A stretch of DNA of 64,000 nt from an uncultured Myxococcales bacterium (GCA_964473255.1 CAYYOT010000003.1:50449-114448), one strand, 5' to 3'; shown: positions 10,247 to 57,826, counted from the first letter of the stretch. The notes: generated from the sequence alone by a model not told the origin. Numbers and translations are program-made.

Positions 10247-12619
10247 ATGCGTACTCGGTGGCCGCTCGGTATCGTCATCGTGGTGTCGGCCTGCAACAGT
10301 GGATCGGACGACGACCGACCGAAGATCGACGGCCGAGTGGTCGACGCTACGGACGACCGTCCGATCGCGGGCGCGCGGGTCGCGACCAGCCCCGAAACCG
10401 AGACGGTGCAGACCGCCAGCGACGGAACGTTTGAGATCGTGCGCGGCGTGCGTCCCAACCGGTTGGTCCGCGTGACGGCGCGGGCGGAGGGATTCGACGT
10501 CGAGAGTCAGGATGTGACCCCGAGCGTCGGCGGCGGAACCAACCTCGTCTTTCGTCTAGAGCCGCGCGTGATCTGCGTTCCCGGTTCGCGTCGCTGCGCT
10601 CAGGGCGGCGAAACCGATGGCTTTCAGGTATGCAACGAGCGCGGGAATGCGTACGACCCGGCGATCGCGTGCACGGACACCGAAGTGTGCGTCCCGGAGG
10701 CTCCCGGCTGTTCACCCGCTCGCCGGGTCACGGTGACCAGCGAAGGTGGCCTGGTCTCGTCTTCGCCCTCCGGAATCTCCTGCGCGCCGACTTGTGAGGC
10801 GTCGTTCGTCGACGGGACGTTCCTGAGGCTGACGGCCCAGCCATTCCCTGGGGGGAGCTTCTCCGGGTGGACGGGAGACTGCTCGGTCCAGGGGACGGAG
10901 CCCGTCTGCGACCTTGTCGTCGACCGCGATCTGGCGGTGGGCGCTTCCTTCCTCGAGACCCTGGCCACCGTCGAGGTCGAGTTCACCACCGAAGATGGAG
11001 CGAGTGGCGAGGTTCAACTCGACGGGACTCGGGACGGCGAGGCGCTGTCCGAGACCTGCCGAGACGACTGCGCCATCATTTTCGATCGCGGCACTCCGGT
11101 CGACCTCGCCGCCCGGGCGGACCCGGGTTTCGAGTTCGCGGGGTGGGGTGACGACTGTGAGGGTGAAGGCGACAACGAAAACTGCCGGTTGACTCTGGAC
11201 GGAGCACGAAGGGCCGGGGTGCGCTTCACGCCGGTCCGCTTCCGCCTGACCGCCGACGTGGCCGAAGGGGCGGGCACGATCGCCTCGACGCCGGCGGGGA
11301 TCGACTGTGGCTCGGACTGCGAAGCGGACTTCAACGAAGGCACGACGGTATCTTTGGTGGCGACGCCGGCACCCAGCAATCGGTTCATCGGCTGGTCCGG
11401 GGCGTGTTCGGGAAGCGTCGCCGATGCGTGCACGGTCACCATGGACCGCGACCTGGCGGTGACGGCCCGCTTCGAGGGCGAGTCGTATGATCTTACGGTC
11501 AGCCGCACGGGGGATGGTACCGGTACGGTTACTTCGAGCCCATCGGGCATCGACTGTGGTGGTGATTGCTCCCAGGTCTACGGCGGCGGACAGGCGGTCA
11601 CGCTCACCGCTTCCGCGGCCGCCGGAAACGTCTTTACCGGCTGGGGCGGCGACTGCTCGGCGTCCGGGGCCGACCCGTCGTGCATGCTGGTCATGGATGC
11701 GGCTCGGTCCGTGTCGGCGGCGTTCGACGCGGTTGCTCTCGACGTGACCGTGTCCGTGACCGGTGCGGGGCGAGTGCGGTCGACCCCTCCCGGCATCGAC
11801 TGTCCGGGGTCGTGTACGGCTGGATTCGTCGCCGGCACCTCCTTGACCTTCGAGGCCGCCCCGGACGTCGACCAAGGCGTGTCCGCGTGGACCGGGCCGT
11901 GCGCTTCCGCCGGCCGCGATACGAGCTGCACTTTCGTCGTCGATCGGGCGGCTTCGGTCGACGTCGCCTTCGACGACTTCTTCGTCCTCCCGCTGCGCGC
12001 CGATATGTCGTGCGAAGCCCTCTTTCGCTTCGAGGCAGCAGCGCCGAGGCAGAATAGCTGCGGGGGGGGCGGCAACGCCGTCGAAGTGGGCAGCTGGACC
12101 GCAGCCGTTTCGCGCTCGAGCGCGCTCGGTGACGCATACCGGCCGGGAGCGGAAGGCGATGCGCTGGACACCACCGTGCTGCTCGGCGACGCGGCGCCCT
12201 TCACCTTCGAGCTTTCCGTCCGTCGGACGGGTACCGCCTTCGGTGGCTTCGGCTCGGGCGTTCTGGTCTCGGACCGGGATGCCGCCGACCCGGGAGGGCC
12301 GGGATTCGAGCTGCTCGCCCTCGACGACGGAGCCGTCGAGCTTCAGACCTTCACCAGCAGCGTCACTTTTTCATCGGTACGCACCTCGACCGATACGTTG
12401 GCCGTCGATCGATGGGTCCACCTTACAGTCGTTCGAAGGAGTCAGGACGTCGAGTTGTTCGTGGATGGAGCGTCGGCGGCCAGTCTGGGCAGCGCTCCAA
12501 ACTGGACGGCTTCGTCGAGTACGGCGATCGTAGGAGCTCGACGCGATGGTTCCGGATACCGACAGACCCTGCAGGGTGACGTCGACGAGATTCGCTTCAG
12601 CAGTGTGGCTCGCCGGTAG
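10247..12619 (+). CDS. Large lipoprotein: N-terminal CarboxypepD_reg-like domain, five tandem Cys-pair repeats of about 90 aa, and a C-terminal LamG/concanavalin-like domain
   Basis: The lipobox is MRTRWPLGIVIVVSAC. The segment DGRVVDATDDRPIAGARVATSPETE...DGTFEI is carboxypeptidase-regulatory-like. The repeated unit is S.PSGIDCG.DC...F..GT.V.L.A.P..G..F.GW.G.C, seen at SSPSGISCAPTCEA, STPAGIDCGSDCEA, SSPSGIDCGGDCSQ and STPPGIDCPGSCTA (InlB B-repeat-like). The C-terminal DVDEIRFSS is LamG-like. Confidence 0.75.
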   Translation: MRTRWPLGIVIVVSACNSGSDDDRPKIDGRVVDATDDRPIAGARVATSPETETVQTASDGTFEIVRGVRPNRLVRVTARAEGFDVESQDVTPSVGGGTNLVFRLEPRVICVPGSRRCAQGGETDGFQVCNERGNAYDPAIACTDTEVCVPEAPGCSPARRVTVTSEGGLVSSSPSGISCAPTCEASFVDGTFLRLTAQPFPGGSFSGWTGDCSVQGTEPVCDLVVDRDLAVGASFLETLATVEVEFTTEDGASGEVQLDGTRDGEALSETCRDDCAIIFDRGTPVDLAARADPGFEFAGWGDDCEGEGDNENCRLTLDGARRAGVRFTPVRFRLTADVAEGAGTIASTPAGIDCGSDCEADFNEGTTVSLVATPAPSNRFIGWSGACSGSVADACTVTMDRDLAVTARFEGESYDLTVSRTGDGTGTVTSSPSGIDCGGDCSQVYGGGQAVTLTASAAAGNVFTGWGGDCSASGADPSCMLVMDAARSVSAAFDAVALDVTVSVTGAGRVRSTPPGIDCPGSCTAGFVAGTSLTFEAAPDVDQGVSAWTGPCASAGRDTSCTFVVDRAASVDVAFDDFFVLPLRADMSCEALFRFEAAAPRQNSCGGGGNAVEVGSWTAAVSRSSALGDAYRPGAEGDALDTTVLLGDAAPFTFELSVRRTGTAFGGFGSGVLVSDRDAADPGGPGFELLALDDGAVELQTFTSSVTFSSVRTSTDTLAVDRWVHLTVVRRSQDVELFVDGASAASLGSAPNWTASSSTAIVGARRDGSGYRQTLQGDVDEIRFSSVARR

Positions 12620-45632: not shown

Positions 45633-46412
45633 ATGCGGGCGCTGGTCGTGGGATGGCTCGTGGTCGGCTTCGCGTGCGCCGACGATGGTACGGGAACAGG
45701 AGGCCGTCCGGATTCCGGAGCAGACTTCGACGGTGGTGCCCCGGACGCCGCCGTTTTCCCCGATGCCGCCGCGTGCCTGCCGTCCGACGAGCCAGCCCCC
45801 TTCCCCTGTAACCCCGTCGATGGGACGCGGTGCGAAGTCTCGACCGGCACGCGCTGTGTGCTGGAGCCCCAGCTCGATGAGGGGCGATGTGTCTGCCTGG
45901 AGGGGAGCAAGGGCTTTCGCGAGTCCTGCGCCGACGGCGAGCCCGAGTGCCAACCCGGCTTTGCCTGCTTCGGTCTCGTCGGGCAGGGCGGCCCGACCTG
46001 CCAGAAGATCTGCGATTTCGAGAGTGGGAGAGGCTGCGAGGAAGTCGATGAAACCGGCATCGAAGCCTACGAGTGCGGCGGGCTCGACGATGGAACCGGG
46101 ATGGCCGCGACCCATGGCATCTGCTTCTTCGTCGGTGAGGCCTGTGACCTTCTCATCAATGACTGTCCGCCGTCGCAGACGTGCACCGTGACCGGCCTGC
46201 AGAGCGCGTGCGTCGACGTCGGGAACCAAGCGGAGGGCGAGGACTGCAGCCTCGACGCTCGCTGTCAGCGAGACCTCGTTTGCTGGCGAGGCCGCCTGGA
46301 CCTCCGCCCCAATTGCAAACCCGTATGCGATCCCGACCTGCCGGAGGATCCCTGCGGAATCGGACGTCGGTGTCGGCCTTTTCAGGATCTCAGCGGCGGC
46401 ATCTGCGACTGA
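45633..46412 (+). CDS. Cysteine-rich secreted lipoprotein (about 259 aa, about 30 Cys)
   Basis: ORF 45141..46412 trimmed to Met165, MRALVVGWLVVGFAC (lipobox). The mature part has CxxxC/CxC spacing reminiscent of EGF/disintegrin-like or Myxococcus Cys-rich modules (CVCLEGSKGFRESCADGEPECQPGFACFG, CDFESGRGCEE). Confidence 0.55.
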   Translation: MRALVVGWLVVGFACADDGTGTGGRPDSGADFDGGAPDAAVFPDAAACLPSDEPAPFPCNPVDGTRCEVSTGTRCVLEPQLDEGRCVCLEGSKGFRESCADGEPECQPGFACFGLVGQGGPTCQKICDFESGRGCEEVDETGIEAYECGGLDDGTGMAATHGICFFVGEACDLLINDCPPSQTCTVTGLQSACVDVGNQAEGEDCSLDARCQRDLVCWRGRLDLRPNCKPVCDPDLPEDPCGIGRRCRPFQDLSGGICD

Positions 46413-46493: not shown

Positions 46494-48284
46494 ATGACGC
46501 CGTACGCCGCGCCCCTCGAGGACATGCGATTCGTTCTCGAACACCTGATCGGTCTCGACGCGCTCCAGCGCTTGCCCGGATGCGAGGAAGCCACTCCCGA
46601 CATGGTGGAGGCCATTCTGGAAGAGGCGTCGAAGCTTGCGACGGCGACGCTCGACCCGATCAACGCAGTGGGCGACCGGCAGCACGCGCAGCTCGTGTCC
46701 GAGGGGGTCGTACGGATGCCCGATGGCTTCAAGGAGGCCTACGACGCCTATCGCGACGGCGGCTGGAACGCCGTGCCGTTCGACCCGGAGTACGGCGGGC
46801 AGGGACTGCCCTGGTCGATCGCCTTCGCCATTCAGGAGATGTGGCAGGCGTCCAACATGTCGTTCGGTCTCTGCCCGATGCTGAACCAGGGCGCGGTGGA
46901 GCTGCTTCAGGAGCACGGCTCCGAGCATCAAAAGCGAACCTTCCTGCCGAACCTGATTTCCGGGGTGTGGACGGGGACCATGAACCTGACCGAGCCGCAG
47001 TCGGGCTCCGACCTTTCGACGGTCCGCACGCTGGCAACGTCGGCCGAAGACGGTACGTATCGGATCAAGGGACAGAAGATCTACATCACCTTCGGTGAGC
47101 ACGACCTGGCGGACAACATCATCCATCTGGTCCTCGCCCGCACGCCGGACGCCCCGGAAGGGACGCGGGGCATCAGTCTCTTCCTGGTTCCGAAGTTCAT
47201 GGTGAACGAGGACGGCACCCCCGGCGAGCGCAACGACGTCACCTGCGTGTCGCTGGAGTCCAAGATGGGCATCAACGCCAGCCCCACCTGCACCATGGCG
47301 TACGGAGAGGCGACCGAGGGAGCGGTCGGCTACCTCATCGGCAACGAGCGCGAAGGCCTCAAGCTCATGTTCACGATGATGAACAATGCTCGGCTCGCTG
47401 TGGGCCTTCAGGGCATCGCCGTGGCCTCGCGCGCGTTCGGTCAGGCTCTGGCATACGCTCGGGATCGCGTTCAGGGGCGGAGCCTCGACGGGACAGCTGC
47501 GGGTTCAGTCCGGATCATCGACCACCCCGATGTTCGGCGCATGCTGCTCGCCATGAAAGCCGAGACCGAGGCGGGCCGGGCGCTCACCTACCACGCGGCC
47601 TACTGTCTGGACGTGGCCAAACGGCACCCCGACCCCAACGAGCGGGCGAAGGCGCAGGCCTACGTCGATCTCTTCACGCCGGTGGTGAAGGCCTGGGGAA
47701 CCGATCTCGGATGCGAGGTCGCTTCACTCGGTGTGCAGGTGCACGGGGGCATGGGCTACGTCGAAGAATCGGGCGCGTCGCAGCTGTACCGCGATGCGCG
47801 GATCGCGCCCATCTACGAGGGAACGAACGGGATCCAGGCGAACGACCTCGTGTTCCGCAAGGTGCAGCGCGACGGCGGCGCTGCGGCCGCGGCCTTCGTG
47901 GAAGACGTACGCGCCGTCGCCGTGCGACTCGAGGCGTCGAACGATGAGAGGCTGCGGTCGATCCAGCCGCTGCTTTCGGAGGCGGCCGACGCCCTGGCCG
48001 ACGCAACGGCGTGGGTCGTCGGTCACGACGGGGAACCGCGGTCGGTGGCGGCGGCGGCGTACGGGTATCTCGATCTCTTTGCCGCGGTCGCGGGAGGCTG
48101 GGCGACCTCCCGCGCCGCTTTGGCCGCGGTGTCGTCCGACGACCTGCGCCCGGCCTTCATCGAGGGCAAGGTCGCGGCCGCCCGCTATTTCGCCGACTTC
48201 CGGCTGACTCAGGCGAAGGGCTTCTTGCAGGCGCTCTTGCGCGGACCCGAAGCCGTCGTCGCGGTCAGTGAAGACGCGCTCTGA
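46494..48284 (+). CDS. Long-chain acyl-CoA dehydrogenase with an extended C-terminal domain (AidB/FadE-like)
   Basis: Acyl-CoA dehydrogenase signatures are present: GTMNLTEPQSGSDLS, YRIKGQKIYITFGEHD, GISLFLV and IYEGTNGIQANDLVFRK. A C-terminal helical extension of about 170 aa follows. Confidence 0.85.
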   Translation: MTPYAAPLEDMRFVLEHLIGLDALQRLPGCEEATPDMVEAILEEASKLATATLDPINAVGDRQHAQLVSEGVVRMPDGFKEAYDAYRDGGWNAVPFDPEYGGQGLPWSIAFAIQEMWQASNMSFGLCPMLNQGAVELLQEHGSEHQKRTFLPNLISGVWTGTMNLTEPQSGSDLSTVRTLATSAEDGTYRIKGQKIYITFGEHDLADNIIHLVLARTPDAPEGTRGISLFLVPKFMVNEDGTPGERNDVTCVSLESKMGINASPTCTMAYGEATEGAVGYLIGNEREGLKLMFTMMNNARLAVGLQGIAVASRAFGQALAYARDRVQGRSLDGTAAGSVRIIDHPDVRRMLLAMKAETEAGRALTYHAAYCLDVAKRHPDPNERAKAQAYVDLFTPVVKAWGTDLGCEVASLGVQVHGGMGYVEESGASQLYRDARIAPIYEGTNGIQANDLVFRKVQRDGGAAAAAFVEDVRAVAVRLEASNDERLRSIQPLLSEAADALADATAWVVGHDGEPRSVAAAAYGYLDLFAAVAGGWATSRAALAAVSSDDLRPAFIEGKVAAARYFADFRLTQAKGFLQALLRGPEAVVAVSEDAL

Positions 48285-48293
48285 TCGAGCGCG
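48275..48293. terminator. Hairpin CGCGCTC-tgatc-GAGCGCG between the convergent acyl-CoA dehydrogenase gene and the 48300 gene; coordinates approximate
   Basis: A 7-bp stem and 5-nt loop overlap the acyl-CoA dehydrogenase stop codon, in a 15-nt convergent gap. It is a possible bidirectional terminator. Confidence 0.3.
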
Positions 48294-48299
48294 ACCGCC

Positions 48300-48956
48300 T
48301 CACTCGGCCTCGAACGCTTCCTCGACCGGAAGCTCGAGTTTGTACCTCTTCAGGCCCGCGTAGTAGAGCACTTCGAGCCCGAGAACGATCCCCCACGACT
48401 GGATGTCGGATCCGGCCAAGTACTCCGCGTCCAGGACGACGGCCAAGGCCAGGCCTCCCGAAGCGAGCGGGTCTTTGCGGAAGGGAAAGAAGTCATAGCT
48501 GGCCCCGCCGGCGACGATGGGGCCGAAAGCGCCCCCGGGATCGTCTTCCAGAACGAGAGCTGCGTCGGCCCGAGTCAGGTTTTGGCCGTACGCACCCAGC
48601 GCCAACCGAAAGGCCAGGTCGAGCTTCTTCCACGGTTGCACCTGTCCTTCCATCATGCCCGCTCCATAGAACGTGCTGAAGTCTTCATTGCTGCCCCCGG
48701 CGAAGCGGACCTGCCCGCCGAAGCCCAGCCATTCGTTCACCATCTCACCGCCGCGGAGGACTCCGCCGAAGACGACGAATGGGTCCAGCCTTCCGAGCTG
48801 GCCGGCATCCAAGAACTGTCCGCCGCCGCGGAAGCCCCCGCCGAAGAAATAGCCCTGACGAGGTCCGGGGGGCCGAAGCTTCTGGGCGGCGGCCGGCGGA
48901 GGGGCGCCGGTCACGACGGCGGCGACGACCACGGCGGCGAGGGCCATTCGCGTCAT
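48300..48956 (-). CDS. Secreted Gly/Phe-rich protein, possibly a small outer-membrane beta-barrel
   Basis: The signal peptide is MTRMALAAVVVAAVVTGAPPPAAAQ. Alternating hydrophobic and Gly-rich segments (YFFGGGFRGGGQF, VVFGGVLRGGEM, LGFGGQVRFAGG, ALGAYGQNL) suggest beta-strands. It is the last gene of the TonB/TBDT operon, and its ATG overlaps the TBDT stop by 1 nt. Confidence 0.45.
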   Translation of the reverse strand: MTRMALAAVVVAAVVTGAPPPAAAQKLRPPGPRQGYFFGGGFRGGGQFLDAGQLGRLDPFVVFGGVLRGGEMVNEWLGFGGQVRFAGGSNEDFSTFYGAGMMEGQVQPWKKLDLAFRLALGAYGQNLTRADAALVLEDDPGGAFGPIVAGGASYDFFPFRKDPLASGGLALAVVLDAEYLAGSDIQSWGIVLGLEVLYYAGLKRYKLELPVEEAFEAE

Positions 48957-51610
48957 CAGAAGTCGATCCTCACGCCGAGGTTGGGAAACACGGGCAAGCC
49001 GGACACCTGCCCCTGCTCCGAAAAGTCGAAGTTGTAGGTCACGCCCTCGGCGTTCTGGCGGTTGTAGGCGTTCAGGACCTCGAGGAACGCCGCGACCGTC
49101 AGAGCCTTGAAGACCCAGCGCTTGTCGAGCCGGATGTCCAAGGAGTGAAACACCGGCAGGCGGTCCGAGTTTCGGTCGCCGTTGATCGCCGCGTACGCAT
49201 CTTGATCGTCGAGGTACACGGAGCCCGTCACCGGCGTGAAGGGATTACCGGACGTCAGACGAAAGCGAGCGCTGAGCTCCCAGTTCTCCGGAAACAGATA
49301 GCTCGCGACCAGGGCGAGGATGTGCGTCTGGTCGAAATCGAAGAGCCGGGTCTCGGTTTCACCGGAGTCGATACGGGTCGAGCGACTGAGCGTGTACGCC
49401 AGCCAGCCTCGGAAGTTCTTGTTGAAGTCGTGCTTCAGATAGACTTCCAGGCCAACGACGTTTCCGGTCGTTTCGTTGTCGAAGATGGCGGGGACCTCGT
49501 TGCCGTCTTCGTCGGTACGGAAGGCGTTCGACGTGCCGGCGAGGTCGTACAGATACTTGTAGAAGAGGGTGATGTCGGCCTTGAAATAGTCGACGGGGTT
49601 CCACTCGAAGCCTGCCGACACCTGGACCGACTTTTCGATGGCCAAGTCGGGGTTGCCGAACTCCTCGGAAAGCTCGGGCGGCGTCGGCGACTGGCTGAAG
49701 AGTCCAACGCCCCCCTTCACCGTCCAGCCTTCGGCGACGATGTAGCGTGCGTTGATCCGCGGGTCGACGGTGACGTCTTCTGCCTGGCCCCAAGTATCGA
49801 CGCGAACTCCGGGAATGAGGGTCAGTCGATCGGTCACGTCCCAGTTGGCCTCGACGTAGGGTGCGATCTGCGGATCGAAGAACCCGCGGATCGAGGTCGC
49901 GAGGAGGTCACTCGCGTCCGGATTGGCCGGATCCTGATTCGGATTCGGCGCCACCACGTCGACGTCGGAAAGCCGGAACAGGCCGTCGACCCCGAAGTCG
50001 ACCAGCAGGTTCTCCGAAAAGCGTACCCGCAGACGGTCGCGGACTTGCCACTGGTAGTTCAGGAAGTCGAACTCGAAGACGTCGAAGAACTGGGTCGAGA
50101 CGTCGTCGACGCCAAATGCGATCTGCAGCTCGTTCGAGATCTTCTGGTTCGGCCGGTAGTCGTACTGTGCGATCACGCGGTTGAACGTATTCCGGCTTTG
50201 GACGGCACCCGAGGTTAGCTGGAGAGAGAGCTGCTGCGCATCTTGAAACAACAGGCGTAGTTCGTCGCGCGACCCGAAGAAGAAAAGCCGAACTTCGTGT
50301 CCGGCTTTGGGTCGCCATCGCGCCAAGGTCTGGTAGTCGATGTACGCCGGCGCCGAGATCACGTCCACCGAGTTGACGTTGTCGCCGACGACGCCTTCGA
50401 TGATGGCGTCCACGTAGCTTCCACGGAATCCACCGGCGACGCTGAACGTATCCCCCAGGGGAGCCTCCAGGTAGCCGTTGGCGTCGAGCAACGTCAGCTG
50501 CGCGCTTCCGTGAACTTGATCGGGGTCGATGCGCTTCAGCTTGACGTCGAGGATGCCGCCGGTCCGTCGCCCATAGAACACGGAGAAGTTCCCGGGAATG
50601 AAGGCCACGCTGTCGATCAGTTCGGCGGGAACGACGCTCTTGACTGACCCGAAGTGGAAGACGAACGGCGTCTCGATCCCTTCGAACAGATAGCCGGTGT
50701 CGGCCGGGGCCGAACCACGGACCGGAAACTGACCGGCTCCGACCGCCGGCCGCGCCGCGCCCGGAAGGTTTTGGACGACGGAGACCGGGTCGCCGAACGC
50801 TCCAGGCACGCGGTACGCTTCCTGCGCGGTGATGACTCTGCGATTGACCTCTTTGACCACACGATCCGTCTCTACGAGAACGTCGTACTCGCTGTAGGCC
50901 CCTTTCTCCGCGAAGTAGGTGACCTCGGTGATCTGTCCGGCCACGACTCGCTCCGATGTCCGAACCGGAAAGTAACCGTCGGCCTCCACCAGGACCTTCC
51001 AGGTGCCGGGAGCGAGGTCGAAGAATGTGAAGCGTCCGTCGTCCCCGGTGATGGACTCGAAGCCCTGGTCGCCTTCCTCGGCGTCGAGACGGAAGACCGT
51101 GACCACCGCTCCCTTCAAGAGCCGTCGGGTCCCCCGTTCTCGCACCCGACCCACCAGATTGGCGATGCCCGGACTCGCCGCCGTCTCCGCGGTGGGTTGG
51201 GGCGGCGGGGGCAGGACGAATCGATAGCGGTAGCCGATGGTGACCTCTACCGGTTCTCCCCCGGCCTCTGCGGGCTCGAACCGAAACATCTTCACCGCGG
51301 CCATCGCCGCTTCGTCGAAGCCGTAGTTGGCGACCGTGCCATCGGCGAGGATGGCCCCGTCGGGCTGAACCTCGGCTCGGGTCGAGGTCCGGACCACGAC
51401 GGCCCGGGCAACGGCGCCGGTCGCGGTGATGGTGATCTCGAGTTCGACCTCCGCTTCGACCCGGTCCCGGAGTGCCGCCTCGGGATACACGGCGCCTTCC
51501 TCGATGATCAGCTTCGGAAGTTTGGTGATCGGAGGAGGCTCTTGGGCCGCGGCGACGAATCCCACGAAGCCAGGGACGAGCGCCGCGGCGAGGACGATGA
51601 CCGGTCTCAA
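48956..51610 (-). CDS. TonB-dependent outer-membrane transporter (Oar-like) with an N-terminal TonB-C-like domain and a CarboxypepD_reg domain
   Basis: The signal peptide is MRPVIVLAAALVPGFVGFVAAAQ. Residues about 25-125 resemble the TonB C-terminal domain (YPEAALRDRVEAEVELEITITATGAV...DEAAMAAVKMFRFEPAEAGGEPVEVTIGYRYRF). A CarboxypepD_reg-like segment follows (LLKGAVVTVFRL...GDDGRFTFFDLAPGTWKV). After that come the plug and a 22-strand barrel, ending in the OMP C-terminus PNLGVRIDF. Confidence 0.8.
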   Translation of the reverse strand: MRPVIVLAAALVPGFVGFVAAAQEPPPITKLPKLIIEEGAVYPEAALRDRVEAEVELEITITATGAVARAVVVRTSTRAEVQPDGAILADGTVANYGFDEAAMAAVKMFRFEPAEAGGEPVEVTIGYRYRFVLPPPPQPTAETAASPGIANLVGRVRERGTRRLLKGAVVTVFRLDAEEGDQGFESITGDDGRFTFFDLAPGTWKVLVEADGYFPVRTSERVVAGQITEVTYFAEKGAYSEYDVLVETDRVVKEVNRRVITAQEAYRVPGAFGDPVSVVQNLPGAARPAVGAGQFPVRGSAPADTGYLFEGIETPFVFHFGSVKSVVPAELIDSVAFIPGNFSVFYGRRTGGILDVKLKRIDPDQVHGSAQLTLLDANGYLEAPLGDTFSVAGGFRGSYVDAIIEGVVGDNVNSVDVISAPAYIDYQTLARWRPKAGHEVRLFFFGSRDELRLLFQDAQQLSLQLTSGAVQSRNTFNRVIAQYDYRPNQKISNELQIAFGVDDVSTQFFDVFEFDFLNYQWQVRDRLRVRFSENLLVDFGVDGLFRLSDVDVVAPNPNQDPANPDASDLLATSIRGFFDPQIAPYVEANWDVTDRLTLIPGVRVDTWGQAEDVTVDPRINARYIVAEGWTVKGGVGLFSQSPTPPELSEEFGNPDLAIEKSVQVSAGFEWNPVDYFKADITLFYKYLYDLAGTSNAFRTDEDGNEVPAIFDNETTGNVVGLEVYLKHDFNKNFRGWLAYTLSRSTRIDSGETETRLFDFDQTHILALVASYLFPENWELSARFRLTSGNPFTPVTGSVYLDDQDAYAAINGDRNSDRLPVFHSLDIRLDKRWVFKALTVAAFLEVLNAYNRQNAEGVTYNFDFSEQGQVSGLPVFPNLGVRIDF

Positions 51611-52773
51611 TTCGTACCCGCCGAAGTGAAGATGACCCGTCGGGAGGTGAACGCCCTCCCTCCACGGTTGTCGCGCATGACGATGTGAAGCGTGCCGGGG
51701 ACATCGTCACCCACGTCGATCAGCCGCGGCGTCGTCCACGCATTGGTGGCGGCACGCTCGGCCGTGCTGCTTTCGCTGCCTTGCTCGAAAGCCGTCCGAT
51801 TACGATCGATCTCCCCGCTCTCCACGAACCAGCTGAGCGTCAAGCGCTCCTGTTCTTCGGGCCCGGGCAGCAGGTCATCGTCGAGCGGTCGAAAAAACTC
51901 GGCGTCGATGTCGAAGTTGCCGGGCAGGACGACGACATCGGTGGCCAGCCCGAGCGTCTGGTCGAGCGGGAGCGGGTTCGGGTCGCTCGGATCGAGGATG
52001 ACCCACCCGAAGTCGGGATTCGCGATCTGACAGGGCTCACCAAAGAGCACCCCGGCGCCGGTCGACGTCGTGGAGCGGATGCAGACCTGATCGAGGCTGG
52101 GGTTGCGGTTCGGAACGACGACGTCCTGAGCGTAGATGATCTCGAGCGGTCGCTGCGCCCGAACGTCGGTCGGCGGGACGTCCCCGGGCCGGCTGTCCTC
52201 GAGCGCGACCAAGACTTCCAGCCGCGCCTCGAACGTGCCGTTGCAGGTGGGACGCTGCACGAAATCCGTGAACTCGACCGTCTGGAGAAACTCACACGCT
52301 GCGGCGAGAAGGGCCTCGAGCCCTTCATCGGTCACCGGTGCGTTCGGCTCGAGCAGGACGTCGCGAAAGTTGAACGTGGCCTCGGGGTTCGTGCCGAGGT
52401 CGAAATCGACGTCGAGGACCTCGTCGGTGGGCGTACCATCGGGCAGCTCGGGGAAGACTTCGATGATCAGCGCCTGGAACTGCTCCGCGGTGACGATGCA
52501 CCCGAAGTCGGCATCCGAGCCGAAAGCGACGGGGCAGAAGGTCCATCGATAATCCGCGGCGCGGGGATCGAATGGCGTCACGTCGGTTACGAGAGCCGTC
52601 AGCGTCGCGGTCTCGCTCACCCGCGGCCAGGCCGAGTCTTGCTCGCCGACGCTCACTTTGACGGTGAGGACCCGAAGGCGGTCGACCTCGCTCTGGGGGG
52701 TGAAGTCGGTTCCACAGGCCCCTTGCAGCGCGGCGCCGAAGGTCAGGAGTATCGCGGGTGCGCTGCGGGTCAT
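51607..52773 (-). CDS. Lipoprotein of unknown function within the TonB operon
   Basis: ORF 51607..52839 trimmed to Met23, MTRSAPAILLTFGAALQGAC (lipobox). The ATG overlaps the tonB stop, and the stop overlaps the TBDT start. I recognised no domain. Confidence 0.55.
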   Translation of the reverse strand: MTRSAPAILLTFGAALQGACGTDFTPQSEVDRLRVLTVKVSVGEQDSAWPRVSETATLTALVTDVTPFDPRAADYRWTFCPVAFGSDADFGCIVTAEQFQALIIEVFPELPDGTPTDEVLDVDFDLGTNPEATFNFRDVLLEPNAPVTDEGLEALLAAACEFLQTVEFTDFVQRPTCNGTFEARLEVLVALEDSRPGDVPPTDVRAQRPLEIIYAQDVVVPNRNPSLDQVCIRSTTSTGAGVLFGEPCQIANPDFGWVILDPSDPNPLPLDQTLGLATDVVVLPGNFDIDAEFFRPLDDDLLPGPEEQERLTLSWFVESGEIDRNRTAFEQGSESSTAERAATNAWTTPRLIDVGDDVPGTLHIVMRDNRGGRAFTSRRVIFTSAGTN

Positions 52774-53723
52774 TCTCGAATCCGGTAACGAACGGTGTAG
52801 GTGACGGTCCATGGGATCGGCTGCCCGTCCTTCAGGCAAGGGCTGAAGCGCGTCTTTTTTGCCGCGGCGAGGGCCGGGGCATTGAATGCTTCGTACTTCG
52901 AAGGCACGACGAGTCGAGCTTCGATGACTTCACCGGTCTCGTCGATCCGGACCTTGACCACCACGTCGGCCTCCAGGTTCTGGGCCCGGTACAGCTGCGG
53001 ATACTCGGGCTCGACCCGGTCCAAAACCTTGGGCCGCACCAGGCCCTTGCCGCCGGCCGCCGCGGCTGGAATGCGCGTTGCCGCCTGATTCTGCCCTCGC
53101 TGCGGGGACTCGTCATTGGAGAGTGATCCGGGTGTCGGATCCTCGGCGATGCGGTCCGTGGTGCCCATCCGCGTGTTGCCGATGGCGAAGGCGGGACCTT
53201 GGCTGCCTTCGACCGTTGATTCCATGCTCAGGCCCACGATGCGTCTCGGCGGGGGCTTGGTCGGCTCCGGCTCGTCATTGGGCGTGTCGATGGGGTCGGC
53301 GGAGGGCGTCGGCTCTCTGCGCTCGGGTTTCGGCCGGGGCTTGGGCTGCGGTGCGACCGGCTGCTCGACGGCCGGCGCGGGAGGTTCGGGTTCCGGCGGG
53401 AGCTCCGGCGCCGGCTCGGGTTGGGGCTCGGGGGGAGGCCGTCGGATCTCCAGCTCGACCCGCCCATCGTTGTGCGACGGAGGGGGTGGCCGAAACATCG
53501 CGGCGTTGGCGGCCGCGAACACGCCGGCCGTCGCGACGTGAAGGCCGACCGCAGCCAGCACCCACGCGGCCCACCTCCAGACGGGTGTCTCGGGGCGCCG
53601 CAGCGGGTCCGGCCAGCGATCGGCGTCGACGCTGCGGGCGACGCGCGTCCGCGCCGCGGCCGCCCGCGCGGCCCGCGCCGCCTGCCGCTGGGCGGCATAG
53701 GATTGTGAGTCGTGATCGGTCAT
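52770..53723 (-). CDS. tonB: Energy transducer TonB
   Basis: The N-terminal anchor is WRWAAWVLAAVGLHVATAGVFAAA. There is a long Pro/Glu-rich spacer (PPEPQPEPAPELPPEPEPPAPAVEQPVAPQPKPRPKPE). The C-terminal TonB_C domain is EPEYPQLYRAQNLEADVVVKVRIDETGEV...AAKKTRFSPCLKDGQPIPWTVTYTVRY. Confidence 0.8.
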   Translation of the reverse strand: MTDHDSQSYAAQRQAARAARAAAARTRVARSVDADRWPDPLRRPETPVWRWAAWVLAAVGLHVATAGVFAAANAAMFRPPPPSHNDGRVELEIRRPPPEPQPEPAPELPPEPEPPAPAVEQPVAPQPKPRPKPERREPTPSADPIDTPNDEPEPTKPPPRRIVGLSMESTVEGSQGPAFAIGNTRMGTTDRIAEDPTPGSLSNDESPQRGQNQAATRIPAAAAGGKGLVRPKVLDRVEPEYPQLYRAQNLEADVVVKVRIDETGEVIEARLVVPSKYEAFNAPALAAAKKTRFSPCLKDGQPIPWTVTYTVRYRIRE

Positions 53724-54148
53724 GGACCCAGATCGACCGGTGCCTCGACCTTCTCGATGTTCAACGCGAAGCTGGAGATCCCGTTGGTCTTCACGGCATC
53801 GATGACGGCCACGACGCGCCCGTAGGCAACGCCCTGGTCGGCAGCGATGACCGCTTGAGCTTTGGGGTCGGTCCGTCGGAGACGCTCGACGGTCTCGATC
53901 AGGTCCTCGCCGGTGGCGGGGGAGCCGTCGAGTAGCAGGCTTCCGTCCTTCAGCAAGGTGATGTTCAGCGTCGACGGTACCGTCACGCCCCCGCTCGCCG
54001 CCTGCGGAAGGTCGACCATCAGCTGGGCGCGAACGATCTGGGTGGACGTAACCATGAGCATCACGAGGAGCACGAGCACGACGTCCACGAAGGGCGTCAC
54101 GTTGATCGACGCGATCGCGTCGTCGTCGTCGTCGATGTTTGCCGCCAT
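53720..54148 (-). CDS. exbD: Biopolymer transport protein ExbD/TolR
   Basis: INVTPFVDVVLVLLVMLMV is the single TM helix, and TLNITLLKDGSLLLDG...VIAADQGVAYGRVVAVIDAVK is the ExbD periplasmic domain. The ATG overlaps the tonB start region (ATGA). Confidence 0.85.
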   Translation of the reverse strand: MAANIDDDDDAIASINVTPFVDVVLVLLVMLMVTSTQIVRAQLMVDLPQAASGGVTVPSTLNITLLKDGSLLLDGSPATGEDLIETVERLRRTDPKAQAVIAADQGVAYGRVVAVIDAVKTNGISSFALNIEKVEAPVDLGP

Positions 54149-54150
54149 GG

Positions 54151-54804
54151 TCAGGATTCCGGCGCCGAGGGCAAGGCGGACTTGAGCTGGCTGAGCAGCG
54201 TCTTGCTGAGCAGGGTGCTTCGGCCCAACACGCGCTTCACCGTCCCGTTGAAGGCGTTGTAGGCCACCACGGCAGGGATGGCCACGAGGAGGCCCACCGC
54301 CGTGGCGACCAAGGCTTCCGAGATACCGACCATGACGCTACCACCGGCGTTGGCCAGGTCCGCCGACAGGTCTTTGAAAGCCTTGATGATTCCCAGGACC
54401 GTACCGAACAGCCCGATGAAGGGTGCGTTGCTGCCGACGGTCGCGAGGAAACTGAGCCGCTGCGTGTACCGAAGCTTCTCCTGGCTCTCTGCCCCCTCCA
54501 TCAAGTCCTGCACCGCCTCCGGGCCTCGTTCGTGCTCCCGCAGACCGAACAGCACGACGTTGGTCTCGAGGCTGTCGAACTGAGCCAGATACTCCGCGGC
54601 CCCGTCGTAGTCGCCCTGCTCGAGCAGGGCGTCGAGCCGACGGCGGACCTCATTCGTGTCGACACGATGGCGCCGATAGAACCCCCCGCGCTCGACCATC
54701 ACCGCCACCGAGAGGAGCGCCAAGAGGAACAATAAATACAGCACCCACTCGGCTTGAAATACGGGCAAGCCGATGATCGTCCGGATCAAACCGTCGGACT
54801 GCAT
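54151..54804 (-). CDS. exbB: MotA/TolQ/ExbB proton-channel protein
   Basis: ORF 54151..54843 trimmed to Met14. It has three TM helices with the ExbB signature region LSFLATVGSNAPFIGLFGTVLGIIKAF...GISEALVATAVGLLVAIPAVVAYNAF. Confidence 0.85.
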   Translation of the reverse strand: MQSDGLIRTIIGLPVFQAEWVLYLLFLLALLSVAVMVERGGFYRRHRVDTNEVRRRLDALLEQGDYDGAAEYLAQFDSLETNVVLFGLREHERGPEAVQDLMEGAESQEKLRYTQRLSFLATVGSNAPFIGLFGTVLGIIKAFKDLSADLANAGGSVMVGISEALVATAVGLLVAIPAVVAYNAFNGTVKRVLGRSTLLSKTLLSQLKSALPSAPES

Positions 54805-54891
54805 GAATGCCGGACACCTAGCGACAGGAACGGTCAGGGCCAAGTCGAACCGCGGGTCTGGGTAGGTTTCGCACGCGAAGCGCTCCCGTTT

Positions 54892-55947
54892 TCAGCGCTC
54901 CGCTCTCGGAGCGTCGCCGCCAAAAGCGCGGGCGATCACATCTTCGGCCGGCTTGTTGAGGGGATTGAAACCGTGCGGGGGTTCCGACGCCGGGTCGTCG
55001 GGGTCCGTCGGAACGACCCAGATCATCACGCCGCGGACCCCGGGGGTCCCCAGCCACTGAGCGAGCACCGCGGCCCAGGATCGGGCCTGGCTGTCCAGGT
55101 CGACCAGCGGCTGGAGGTCTTCGGGCCACTCCCATGGCCGAACGTGCGACAGGGGCCCGCTCCGATAGCCGGCCTCGAGAACCAGGACGGGGCGGTCGGT
55201 CCGGAGCGACAGCGCCTGAAGTCTTCGGGCGACGGCTTCGGCTCCGCGGACTGGCTCCGGCTGCAGCGGGTAGTATCCGTTCACGCCGACGATGTCGACG
55301 AGGTCCCAAAACGGGACCGACTCGGCTTCGTCCCAGTTTGCGCTGTAGGTCAAGAGCCCGTCGTATTCGGCACGCACCCGTTCGACGAGACGCGCGAACC
55401 GGACCCGGGTCTCCGGGCGCGAGGAGAGTGCCTTCAGCTCGACGCCCACGGACAGGGCCGTCGCGCCGCTGGCGGTGGCGATGTCGGCCGCCGTCAGCAT
55501 GAAGGTCTCGTACGAGGTCCACCATTCGTCGGCGGCATCGTCGAGGGCGAGGTCTCCGCGCCAGGACCCGTCGTCGAAATAGATGTGGGGGACGACCACG
55601 GTGGCGATGCCCAGTTCGTTGGCGTCGAGGAGCTTTCGCCGGATCGGGTCGAGCTCGCCACGGGACGCGACGTCGACCGTTCGGTCCGACAGGTCGGCCA
55701 TCCGTCCTTCCATCAAGACCGCAATCGTATTCACGCCCAATCGCGATAGACGCTCGAGCGTGCGTCGAGCCGTCGCGGTTCCGTATCCCCGACGCTCGTC
55801 ACCGACGGGGCGGAGATTCGCTCCCTTGACGATTTCGGGGAGCGGAACCGGTTTCGGGGGCGGGGGTGAGCGGGTCGAGAACGGAGAGCAGGCCGCGGAG
55901 GCGAGCACCAGGGACAGGGATCGCCGTGTCCTCCATCCCTTCGTCAC
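54892..55947 (-). CDS. Secreted TIM-barrel glycoside-hydrolase-like protein
   Basis: ORF 54892..56022 trimmed to the GTG at 55947, with the lipobox-like LSLVLASAAC. Alternating beta/alpha pattern suggests a TIM barrel: GVNTIAVLMEG, IATVVVPHIYFDDGSWRGD and LTYSANWDEAESVPFWDLVDIVGVNGYYPL, which resembles GH catalytic Glu/Asn-Glu environments. The family is uncertain. Confidence 0.45.
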   Translation of the reverse strand: MTKGWRTRRSLSLVLASAACSPFSTRSPPPPKPVPLPEIVKGANLRPVGDERRGYGTATARRTLERLSRLGVNTIAVLMEGRMADLSDRTVDVASRGELDPIRRKLLDANELGIATVVVPHIYFDDGSWRGDLALDDAADEWWTSYETFMLTAADIATASGATALSVGVELKALSSRPETRVRFARLVERVRAEYDGLLTYSANWDEAESVPFWDLVDIVGVNGYYPLQPEPVRGAEAVARRLQALSLRTDRPVLVLEAGYRSGPLSHVRPWEWPEDLQPLVDLDSQARSWAAVLAQWLGTPGVRGVMIWVVPTDPDDPASEPPHGFNPLNKPAEDVIARAFGGDAPRAER

Positions 55948-55993
55948 GACGCGGTACCCTAGCCAGCTCCGTGCGTGGCGCCAAGCCGAGCGG

Positions 55994-56434
55994 TCAGTTT
56001 CCGAGCACGACCTGCTTGGCACCCAGTTGCGTCAAGATGTCCTGCAGTCGGTGCAGCGGTGCGCCCTGAACGAGCAGGTCGGTGCCGTCGGTCCGAGCTC
56101 CGAGACCCAGACGCTCCTTGAGGTGGGTCGTGACCGCCGACTGCACTTCCATGCCGAGGTCGAGGCCCCGGACGCGGGTCACGGTCTTTCCGCCGTGCCC
56201 CTTCCGCTCGCGCTGGAGCACCAGCTTCGAGCTTCGAGAGAGGTCGAGCATGTCGACCTCGGGTTTGTCATAGATCGTGGTCGCGGCCGACTCGGAAGCC
56301 TCAGCCGGCTCGGCAGCGGCGGTTTCGGGACCCGCCATCTGGTCGCGGAGCGTCTTGAGGCCCGCGAAGGCCGGGTTGAAGGGAACGTTGCGCGGATGAG
56401 ACGTCGTAGGTCGATTCCGGGGCTTCTTTGCCAC
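55994..56434 (-). CDS. yciH: SUI1/eIF1-family translation initiation factor homologue (YciH-like)
   Basis: The C-terminal SUI1 domain is KLVLQRERKGHGGKTVTRVRGLD...LKERLGLGARTDGTDLLVQGAPLHRLQDILTQLG. The N-terminal extension is disordered. The start is a GTG. Confidence 0.8.
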   Translation of the reverse strand: MAKKPRNRPTTSHPRNVPFNPAFAGLKTLRDQMAGPETAAAEPAEASESAATTIYDKPEVDMLDLSRSSKLVLQRERKGHGGKTVTRVRGLDLGMEVQSAVTTHLKERLGLGARTDGTDLLVQGAPLHRLQDILTQLGAKQVVLGN

Positions 56435-56468
56435 GGCGCGTCAGCTACCATAGGGTTCCCTCATCGAA

Positions 56469-56484
56469 AAGGCGTTAATGCCTT
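56469..56484 (-). terminator. Candidate intrinsic terminator AAGGC-attaac-GCCTT followed by TTTC, on the minus strand after the 56483..57826 gene; coordinates approximate
   Basis: A 5-bp stem and 6-nt loop are followed by a short T-tract. It overlaps the TAA stop. This is one of the few AT-containing intergenic spots in the window. Confidence 0.25.
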
Positions 56485-57826
56485 ACTGCGCGAACCACTC
56501 GCGAACCCGGTCGATATAGCTTCTCGCTCCGTCCGGCTCCGTTTGAAAATGGGGCGGAAGCGGGACCAATCGAGCGCGGATCGAAGCGCGGTCCCACCCC
56601 GTCAGGGACGCGAGAGCGTCGACTTCCTTCTCCCGTCGAGTCTTGACCCCCGAGAAGTACTCGGCGGCGGCCGGGCACTCGGTCGGACGCTCGAACGGAT
56701 TACGGAGTACGAACCGCACTTGGTAGTTTTTGGCATCGCGCGTCGCTTTGAGCACCAGGTCTTCCGGAAAACTCTGCTGGTCATACCGTGCGTGCAGACG
56801 CGTGACGTAGGCGTTGGTCCCACGGGACGGCCCCCCGGGTTCCGGGGGATTCCACCAGACGCCGAGGGTTTCGAGTTCCTCCGTCGATAAGGGATCCGCG
56901 GCACACGGATCGCACCAGGACATGTTCCATCCATACTCGGTGAAAACGGCGCGACCACCCGCTCGCTCGACCTGCTGGTCGAAAACGGCCCGGTAGACGT
57001 CCGCGAACTCGCTCTTCACGAAGGTGGGGATCTCGGCGTTCGTCGGCATCTTGATGTTGCGGTAGTTTGCCGTCTCGACGCGGAAGTCTTGGGTGATCAC
57101 GTAGGCGATCAGGTCCTGCGGACCGTCCGCGTTCAGCATCCCCAGCCGCACGGGAAGCATGAATCGTCGGTCGGGAAAGGCGAACTGAAGCGGACGGAGT
57201 TTGCTTTGTCTTCCTCTCAGGGACTCGAGGTTCACCTTGGCCACGAAGAACTTCATGCCGGAGCGCACGTACGGCCGCAGCGCCGATGATGTTCCGGTCG
57301 GAATTCGGTAATCGTTTTTCCGAAGCCATGACTCCAAGCTGTCCGATTGGCTCGCTGATAGTATGACGATGTCGTACTCCCCAACCGTGTAGCTTGCTTC
57401 GACCAATACCTTGCCGTCGTCGGTGTCGGCCGCGGCCTCCGCCGGAGGCGCGGCCGACATCATCAGCATTCGGTCGAATCGGCGCGGCGGCGGCGCGTGG
57501 CACGGATCGGGGTCGTGGTACTCGGCCAGCCGCGGTGCCGTGTACGCATCGAGGTGGTCGCTCGCCGCCATGTCGACCACGCGCACCACGTCCTCGCGAA
57601 GGACGACGGGGACGGGCACGACGAGGGCGAAGTTCTCCGGCGGCCCGCGATAGTCGTTGACCATCGTGAGCACGGTCTTGCCGTCATCGTGCACGATCAC
57701 GACCTGAGAAGCGGAGTTGAAGAGCTGGGCATCGGCTCGTCCCACGAAGAATCCGCAGAAGGCCTCCGCCGCAATCGGGTTGGCCGTGACGAGGACGGCG
57801 CTGACCAGAAAAGATTGAGTATTCAT
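56483..57826 (-). CDS. Secreted hypothetical protein (447 aa; possibly DUF2330-like)
   Basis: ORF 56483..58756 trimmed to Met311, MNTQSFLVSAVLVTANPIAAEAFCGFFV (signal peptide). The upstream 310 aa of the ORF are Arg-rich. The body is protein-like with conserved-looking blocks (YDIVILSASQSDSLESWLRKNDYRIP, KFFVAKVNLESL, MSWCDPCAADPLS). The ATG overlaps the stop of the upstream membrane-protein gene. Confidence 0.55.
   Translation of the reverse strand: MNTQSFLVSAVLVTANPIAAEAFCGFFVGRADAQLFNSASQVVIVHDDGKTVLTMVNDYRGPPENFALVVPVPVVLREDVVRVVDMAASDHLDAYTAPRLAEYHDPDPCHAPPPRRFDRMLMMSAAPPAEAAADTDDGKVLVEASYTVGEYDIVILSASQSDSLESWLRKNDYRIPTGTSSALRPYVRSGMKFFVAKVNLESLRGRQSKLRPLQFAFPDRRFMLPVRLGMLNADGPQDLIAYVITQDFRVETANYRNIKMPTNAEIPTFVKSEFADVYRAVFDQQVERAGGRAVFTEYGWNMSWCDPCAADPLSTEELETLGVWWNPPEPGGPSRGTNAYVTRLHARYDQQSFPEDLVLKATRDAKNYQVRFVLRNPFERPTECPAAAEYFSGVKTRREKEVDALASLTGWDRASIRARLVPLPPHFQTEPDGARSYIDRVREWFAQ

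Follow-up and report, generated by a model that had tools for sequence, protein, structure and literature searches.

A TonB C-terminal domain fused to a TonB-dependent transporter in a conserved six-gene module of Myxococcota

Introduction

TonB-dependent transport is understood as a process that operates in trans, in which the C-terminal domain of a motor-linked TonB grabs the TonB box of a transporter. A locus in a 64,000 nucleotide (nt) stretch of DNA from an uncultured Myxococcales bacterium (GCA_964473255.1, CAYYOT010000003.1:50449-114448; the whole stretch is referred to as the window) raises the question of what the grabbing domain may do when it is also present in cis. At positions 48300-54804, six genes encode ExbB, ExbD and TonB, a lipoprotein, a TonB-dependent transporter (TBDT) and a small outer-membrane protein, and the transporter itself carries a TonB C-terminal (TonB_C) domain whose conservation is on a par with that of the plug and which is found across the phylum. 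The region is interpreted, with moderate confidence, as a single operon whose products form a self-contained outer-membrane transport module that is energised by Ton, is typical of Myxococcota, probably works as an importer and includes a partner lipoprotein. This module is a phylum-typical and unstudied variant of the TonB-dependent transport system.

Arrangement of the gene module

All six genes are transcribed from the minus strand, and each of the open reading frames (ORFs) reported in a first-pass annotation of the window was recovered at its coordinates.

54151-54804, minus strand: exbB, predicting a MotA/TolQ/ExbB proton-channel subunit (PF01618, E = 3e-33)
53720-54148, minus strand: exbD, predicting an ExbD/TolR protein (PF02472, E = 2e-29) with Asp22 in the N-terminal membrane helix
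52770-53723, minus strand: tonB, 317 amino acids (aa), with TonB_C at residues 238-315 (PF03544, 60 bits; TIGR01352, 59.7 bits)
51607-52773, minus strand: lipoprotein, 388 aa, with lipobox LQGA-C20, four conserved Cys and a predicted tandem beta-sandwich
48956-51610, minus strand: TBDT, 884 aa, with a TTG start and a signal peptide at residues 1-22
48300-48956, minus strand: small outer-membrane protein, 218 aa, with a signal peptide followed by a predicted 8-stranded beta-barrel

The genes had been described as chained by overlaps of 1-4 nt. This applies to four of the junctions, namely exbD/tonB and tonB/lipoprotein (both ATGA, 4 nt), lipoprotein/TBDT (TTGA, 4 nt) and TBDT/218-aa ORF (TGATG, 1 nt), but not to exbB/exbD, where the exbB stop codon is separated from exbD by a gap of 2 nt. 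The exbB reading frame is open as far as 54843. However, the ATG at 54804 is the better start because alignments with homologues begin at residue 14-16. Beyond the last stop codon of the module, at a distance of 15 nt, is the end of a convergent gene for an acyl-CoA dehydrogenase, and the tight coupling of the genes (four overlaps, one 2-nt gap and a convergent gene at 15 nt) was counted in favour of a single operon.

Domain structure of the transporter

The transporter consists of a signal peptide (AAA-QE), the TonB_C domain, a Pro-rich linker, a CarboxypepD_reg domain, a TonB box, the plug and the barrel. This confirms the order of domains proposed previously, as TonB_C, CarboxypepD_reg, Plug and barrel all score above their Pfam cut-offs.

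51212-51523, minus strand: TonB_C fused at the N-terminus of the mature TBDT, residues ~30-133
Residues 134-150: Pro-rich linker between TonB_C and CarboxypepD_reg
50918-51157, minus strand: CarboxypepD_reg N-terminal extension, residues 152-231 (PF13620, 40.7 bits against a cut-off of 32.3)
50864-50887, minus strand: candidate TonB box YDVLVETD, residues 242-249, just ahead of the plug, located from the alignment
50558-50863, minus strand: Plug, residues 250-351 (PF07715, 26.4 bits against 23.9)
48959-50248, minus strand: beta-barrel, residues ~455-884 (PF00593, 82.8 bits against 27, with the hit at 455-840)

The family alignment includes a TonB-box-like consensus, YDVxVTA, conserved directly before the plug, which resembles the D-T-x-V-V-T-A of classical TonB boxes. 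The protein belongs to the TonB-dependent transporters by its Plug, its PF00593 barrel and, at the sequence level, its TonB box, and it has the CarboxypepD_reg domain between signal peptide and plug that defines an Oar-type TBDT. At the domain level it is thus established as a predicted 22-strand-class transporter in which a CarboxypepD_reg extension and a TonB box precede the plug. A further barrel profile, PF25183 (OMP_b-brl_4), which we take to represent the Oar-class barrel, is carried by many distant relatives but reaches only 21.2 bits against a cut-off of 30 in the window TBDT. There was no SusC-family match among the 20 NCBIfam matches listed for the protein.

The fused TonB C-terminal domain

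The N-terminal segment of about 100 aa that had been proposed to be a TonB C-terminal domain scores 44.6 bits with PF03544 (cut-off 24.6) and 47.5 bits with TIGR01352 (cut-off 27.1). A segment that was no more than a divergent extension had been expected to fail such profiles; on checking, it passes both of these curated cut-offs. The PF03544 match falls in two stretches, residues 42-81 and 95-133, which together cover profile positions ~3-79. They are split by an insertion of ~20 aa at residues ~76-97 (window positions 51320-51385), STRAEVQPDGAILADGTVAN, that is confined to the closest relatives (the P0002-P0031 group) and is absent from remoter members of the family. Identity between the cis domain and the C-terminal domain of the TonB encoded in the same operon is 26%, and TonB C-terminal domains were the only matches among PDB sequences, all of them weak (best E 0.046).

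Constraint on the domain was measured as the proportion of invariant columns in an alignment of 23 TBDT sequences that share 29-67% identity. The values were 10.6% for TonB_C, 11.8% for Plug, 5.0% for CarboxypepD_reg and 4.9% for the barrel. The conserved positions in the cis domain are those of the canonical core, comprising the YP motif, FEPA and the terminal strand. As the density of invariant columns is close to that of the plug and twice that of the barrel, and the canonical core is conserved, a decayed relic is unlikely. The consensus also stays the same when the small barrel or a dedicated TonB is missing from the neighbourhood. The segment is a complete, strongly constrained TonB C-terminal domain that is tethered to the outer membrane.

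Distribution of the fusion

Nearly all of 82 database homologues have precomputed assignments to PF03544, PF13620, PF07715 and PF00593. At least 591 relatives came up in a scan that took a single genome from each species, and the 80 best loci were used for the analyses of gene context. All 80 are labelled Myxococcota or as metagenome-assembled genomes of Deltaproteobacteria type, most of them as Polyangia, Haliangiales, Kofleriaceae, Bradymonadia, Myxococcaceae or unclassified 'Myxococcales', with one Bdellovibrionales and a few given merely as 'proteobacterium' or 'bacterium'. Of the 68 loci in which the contig includes the N-terminus of the TBDT, 67 have a TonB_C-like segment shortly before the plug. 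An exhaustive phmmer search with TBDT residues 25-235 against 1.84 billion cluster representatives gave 376 matches at E ≤ 1e-10. On a reading of the table, the best 150 include ~60 proteins 850-930 aa long that have a single N-terminal match over the whole query; the remainder of these 150 are giant CarboxypepD_reg repeat proteins.

The NCBIfam model NF038079, an equivalog model for MxcH, also starts with TonB_C. Positions 2-99 of this model match both the N-terminus of the window TBDT (57.7 bits) and the C-terminal domain of the operon TonB (54.8 bits). The fusion is therefore found on at least two classes of myxobacterial TBDT, and is already part of a curated model. A survey of >30,000 TBDTs distinguished five N-terminal architectures, and TonB_C was not among them (PMC6434023). 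The description of the architecture as unusual thus holds with respect to characterised TBDTs, but not within Myxococcota, where the 67 of 68 loci, the relatives found in the scan and the inclusion in NF038079 make it the rule for this family. A full-text literature search found no paper describing a TonB_C-TBDT fusion and returned nothing relevant on MxcH. The fusion is common in the phylum and annotated in databases, yet functionally undescribed.

Conservation of the module

To assess conservation of the gene module, the 80 loci were searched by tblastn for the six window proteins, and all ORFs were separately clustered. The full order exbB-exbD-tonB-lipoprotein-TBDT-small ORF recurs in ~30 loci from different Myxococcota lineages, and the complete module is present in essentially every locus whose TBDT has an identity of ~40% or more and whose contig is of sufficient length. 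A second order, exbB-exbD-tonB-TBDT-lipoprotein, without the small barrel, was found in Bradymonadia-type metagenome-assembled genomes (L047, L051, L052, L054, L061 and others). In a third group, which includes the Myxococcaceae loci L068 and L074, the TonB_C-bearing TBDT occurs without these neighbours.

The lipoprotein family adjoins the TBDT in 56 of 81 loci, either upstream or immediately downstream, and the TBDT is followed directly by the small barrel ORF in 34 other loci, which bears out the suggestion that both are conserved partners of the transporter. Because the adjacency of lipoprotein and TBDT outlasts changes in gene order, it argues for a putative functional pair rather than mere synteny.

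Two further features of the related loci were observed. In the second gene order tonB abuts the TBDT gene, suggesting a route by which TonB_C could have been duplicated onto the transporter. Four loci with the module, L023, L024, L025 and L032, have divergent genes for a histidine kinase and a response regulator of the OmpR type directly upstream of exbB (at ~2500-4800 in L023-L025 and ~3000-5000 in L032), and this pair could be a dedicated regulator in that lineage.

The energiser, the lipoprotein and the small barrel

At the domain level (Pfam) the inner-membrane energiser is complete, with MotA_ExbB, ExbD and a TonB that includes TonB_C. The TonB sequence combines an N-terminal membrane helix that contains His62 with a Pro-rich spacer (~residues 78-160) and the C-terminal domain. 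Its PF03544 score supports the earlier statement that a separate canonical TonB with its own TonB_C is encoded two genes upstream of the TBDT.

The 388-aa lipoprotein has no Pfam or NCBIfam match, and its structure model predicts a mostly beta-sandwich protein, in tandem arrangement, without a solved relative. The 218-aa protein likewise has no match in Pfam or NCBIfam, including described barrel families such as PF01389 and PF13505. Both had been listed as lacking recognisable sequence domains, in agreement with the absence of Pfam matches. The guess that the small Gly-rich protein is a barrel is supported by its AlphaFold2 model (mean predicted local distance difference test score, pLDDT, 83), which has 8 strands between residues 35 and 200. 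Foldseek searches with this model against the PDB retrieved OmpA-TM, Ail, NspA, OmpX and OmpW at E values of 5e-7 to 1e-4; the probability was 1.0 for OmpA-TM, Ail, NspA and OmpX, and identity to solved barrels was 11-18%. On the basis of the model, the protein is a predicted OmpA/OmpX-like outer-membrane barrel.

Across 32 loci, the best-conserved blocks of this protein are not the strands but the two ends of the mature chain.

48303-48356, minus strand: C-terminal tail of the barrel, 18 residues, GLKRYKLELPVEEAFEAE, with the family motif GLPxxxLxLPxxEA[FYW]
48849-48884, minus strand: conserved N-terminal block xLxxPxxRQGYY, the first residues of the mature protein

The tail motif is confined to these barrel genes among all ORFs of the 80 loci, and low pLDDT in the tail suggests that it is unstructured on its own. 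In OmpA-type barrels both termini face the periplasm, and the conserved, presumably periplasmic termini would fit a role as docking peptides. The module thus defines two uncharacterised envelope families, one represented by the tandem beta-sandwich lipoprotein and the other by the 8-stranded barrel with its tail. As both have clear genetic partners, they are directly testable in culturable myxobacteria.

Function of the module and alternative explanations

In the interpretation favoured here, the operon TonB would pull the TonB box of the transporter and the plug would open. The tandem beta-sandwich lipoprotein would serve the transporter as a lid or as its substrate-binding or receptor partner, in the manner of other pairs of TBDT and lipoprotein, and the direction would most probably be import. 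The cis TonB_C cannot transduce force itself, because it has no membrane helix or link to the motor, and it may instead be a periplasmic docking domain whose partner is bound by beta-strand addition. The C-terminal domains of TonB and TolA bind their targets in this way (PMC12204202), which makes a docking domain tethered to the outer membrane the simplest reading of the fused segment.

Several points weigh against this interpretation. The choice of import over export follows solely the behaviour of the majority of TBDTs, and any ligand proposed for the cis TonB_C is conjectural. The lipoprotein has no SusD, TbpB or HmuY-type similarity, so that no known substrate-binding partner was matched. 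Nor was there a clue to the substrate. No riboswitch or other RNA leader was detected (positions 47500-56500 gave no Rfam match at E ≤ 1), there is no Fur-box-like palindrome near the operon (one site with 3 mismatches is far off, at 33692), and no enzyme or inner-membrane or ATP-binding cassette (ABC) transporter is consistently linked among the loci of relatives. The motor subunits also match NCBIfam models for TolQ and TolR better than those for ExbB and ExbD, with all scores below the equivalog cut-offs: the ExbB protein scores 118 bits with TolQ (cut-off 221) and 85 with ExbB (206), and the ExbD protein 84 bits with TolR (127) and 57 with ExbD (153). These scores are the only hint of the Tol-Pal-like system that they might suggest, and no TolB or Pal gene was found at the locus.

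It is unlikely that the module serves secretion or surface display, with the TBDT moving a protein outward as Oar does for PopC, and with the lipoprotein as cargo or the lipoprotein and barrel as assembly factors. Oar is a CarboxypepD_reg-type TBDT with adjacent exbB, exbD and tonB and is required for secretion of PopC (PMC6434023), the lipoprotein gene is nearly always beside the TBDT, and Myxococcus xanthus displays surface lipoproteins without a type 11 (Slam-like) system (PMC9946355). However, no secreting TBDT other than Oar is documented, secretion by Oar does not require its N-terminal extension, and SusC-like importers share the architecture (PMC6434023), so that the earlier step from 'Oar-type' to secretion is a weak one. 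Adjacency of TBDT and lipoprotein is equally typical of the importers SusCD and TbpAB, and the window TBDT misses the PF25183 cut-off that many distant relatives reach. Nothing found speaks specifically for secretion or favours the lipoprotein or barrel as cargo over accessory subunits. Also doubtful is a regulatory 'decoy or latch', in which the cis TonB_C would hold a TonB box (its own or that of a neighbour) or a TonB C-terminal domain and so gate the motor-linked TonB; together with the partner lipoprotein and the barrel with its docking peptides, this would form a Myxococcota-specific multi-subunit machine that possibly places the lipoprotein on the cell surface. If the cis domain does bind a TonB box or TonB, it would be a natural handle for studying how many transporters share scarce TonB and what prevents futile pulling.

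The remaining alternatives concern the fused domain itself. A role as a cell-wall anchor that fixes or localises the TBDT by binding peptidoglycan does not seem likely. In work attributed to Kaserer et al. in 2008, the C-terminal domain of Escherichia coli TonB is said to bind peptidoglycan, and a ligand common to all family members would suit the shared TonB_C consensus. A similar anchoring role has been proposed for the AMIN-TBDT fusions, which are found only in cyanobacteria and represent a lineage-specific wall-binding fusion (bioRxiv 10.64898/2026.07.30.741596). However, the LysM, OmpA_C and AMIN profiles of Pfam and NCBIfam do not match the segment, and the positions conserved in it are those of the TonB_C core (YP, FEPA and the last strand) used in beta-strand addition. 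Binding of the cis domain to the periplasmic tail or the N-terminal peptide of the barrel, assembling a complex of TBDT, barrel and lipoprotein, is quite improbable. The termini are the most conserved blocks of the barrel and are predicted to be unstructured, and no barrel has the tail motif unless it directly follows one of these TBDTs. However, the tail is unlike the TonB box of the family, and CarboxypepD_reg, TonB or the lipoprotein could be its partner instead. This explanation is further weakened because TonB_C is equally present, with the same consensus, in ~40 loci without the barrel; the tail, being restricted to one gene arrangement, is the less likely ligand. It is highly improbable that the segment is a leftover of a fusion or duplication of tonB and TBDT that has no present function. 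Duplication would be favoured by the alternative gene order (L051, L054 and L061), in which the TBDT gene comes right after tonB, and the low identity to the neighbouring TonB would suit a relic, but TonB_C has been kept in 67 of 68 relatives at 29-67% identity, with its core intact and an invariant-column density twice that of the barrel. The cis TonB C-terminal domain and the tail-bearing barrel are the features of the module most worth experiment.

Relationship to known systems

MxcH (NF038079) is, like the window protein, a myxobacterial TBDT, and its curated model begins with TonB_C. The window protein as a whole reaches 57.7 bits against a cut-off of 925 and so does not belong to this equivalog, and its CarboxypepD_reg extension, plug and barrel do not align to the 792-position model. 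MxcH is the myxochelin siderophore receptor, whereas no siderophore context is seen at the window locus. Oar of M. xanthus (MXAN_1450, TonOar) shares CarboxypepD_reg, TonB box, plug and barrel with the window TBDT and also has exbB, exbD and tonB alongside; its published description mentions no TonB_C, partner lipoprotein or small barrel, and Oar exports PopC (PMC6434023).

The SusC/SusD and TbpA/TbpB systems resemble the module in the genetic pairing of a TBDT with an outer-membrane lipoprotein but lack both the cis TonB_C and the small barrel. SusC-like proteins have a CarboxypepD_reg-type extension before the TonB box, which has been implicated in interaction with TonB (PMC12204202). The module cannot be assigned to the SusC/SusD type, as the window lipoprotein is a predicted tandem beta-sandwich that matches neither SusD nor TbpB profiles, whereas SusD is helical and TPR-like. 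The cyanobacterial AMIN-TBDTs also have an extra periplasmic N-terminal domain restricted to one phylum; there it is the peptidoglycan-binding AMIN (bioRxiv 10.64898/2026.07.30.741596), whereas the domain fused in the window TBDT is one that normally engages TBDTs in trans. This phylum-specific fusion has only just been described, and a census of the TonB_C fusion would fill a gap.

In the gliding motor of M. xanthus, GltG and GltJ have TonB/TolA-like periplasmic domains, TonB-box-like strands occur on barrels, and there is a lipoprotein, CglB (PMC9946355). Unlike in the window module, the Glt platform has its TonB-like domains on inner-membrane proteins that AglRQS drives, and its barrels do not belong to the TBDTs. 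No homology to Glt proteins was seen in the module. Also in M. xanthus, MXAN_1688 ('TonB family protein') and MXAN_1689 (hypothetical, outer membrane) are induced with iron-acquisition genes, and deletion of the TBDT gene MXAN_0821, which is beside the TonB gene MXAN_0820, failed and the gene was reported as essential (PMC3986340, PMC3222651 and PMC6434023). It is possible that MXAN_1688, MXAN_1689 and MXAN_0821 are homologues of components of the module.

Neighbouring genes and other features of the window

Scans for promoters and terminators gave nothing over shuffled expectation. A gene for a glycoside hydrolase of the GH113 family, with a lipobox-like LASAAC, is located on the minus strand at 54892-56022 and ends 87 nt upstream of exbB. 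It keeps this position in L001, L003-L006, L008 and L009, alongside syntenic housekeeping genes. A link to glycans through this gene was considered and rejected, as the gene is absent from remoter complete modules; since it is upstream only in the closest relatives, its position probably reflects synteny and not function. Translations of the genes next to paralogous loci predict a Ser/Thr kinase, a LysM/TPR protein, an Lgt-like protein, a phosphoenolpyruvate carboxykinase, a methyltransferase and a ParA-like ATPase, and there is no consistent functional theme among these neighbours.

Two further predicted proteins were observed elsewhere in the window. The gene at 10247-12619 on the plus strand predicts a 790-aa protein with InlB B-repeat domains, a C-terminal Laminin_G_3 and an N-terminal CarbopepD_reg_2-like segment that scores 23.9 bits, under the cut-off of 32.2. 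It shares the immunoglobulin-like fold type of the extension with the TBDT, without the barrel. The gene at 45657-46412, also on the plus strand, predicts a Cys-rich secreted protein of ~250 aa with many CxxC-like spacings and no Pfam match, and is flanked by the gene for the acyl-CoA dehydrogenase and a LarC-like gene for nickel insertion.

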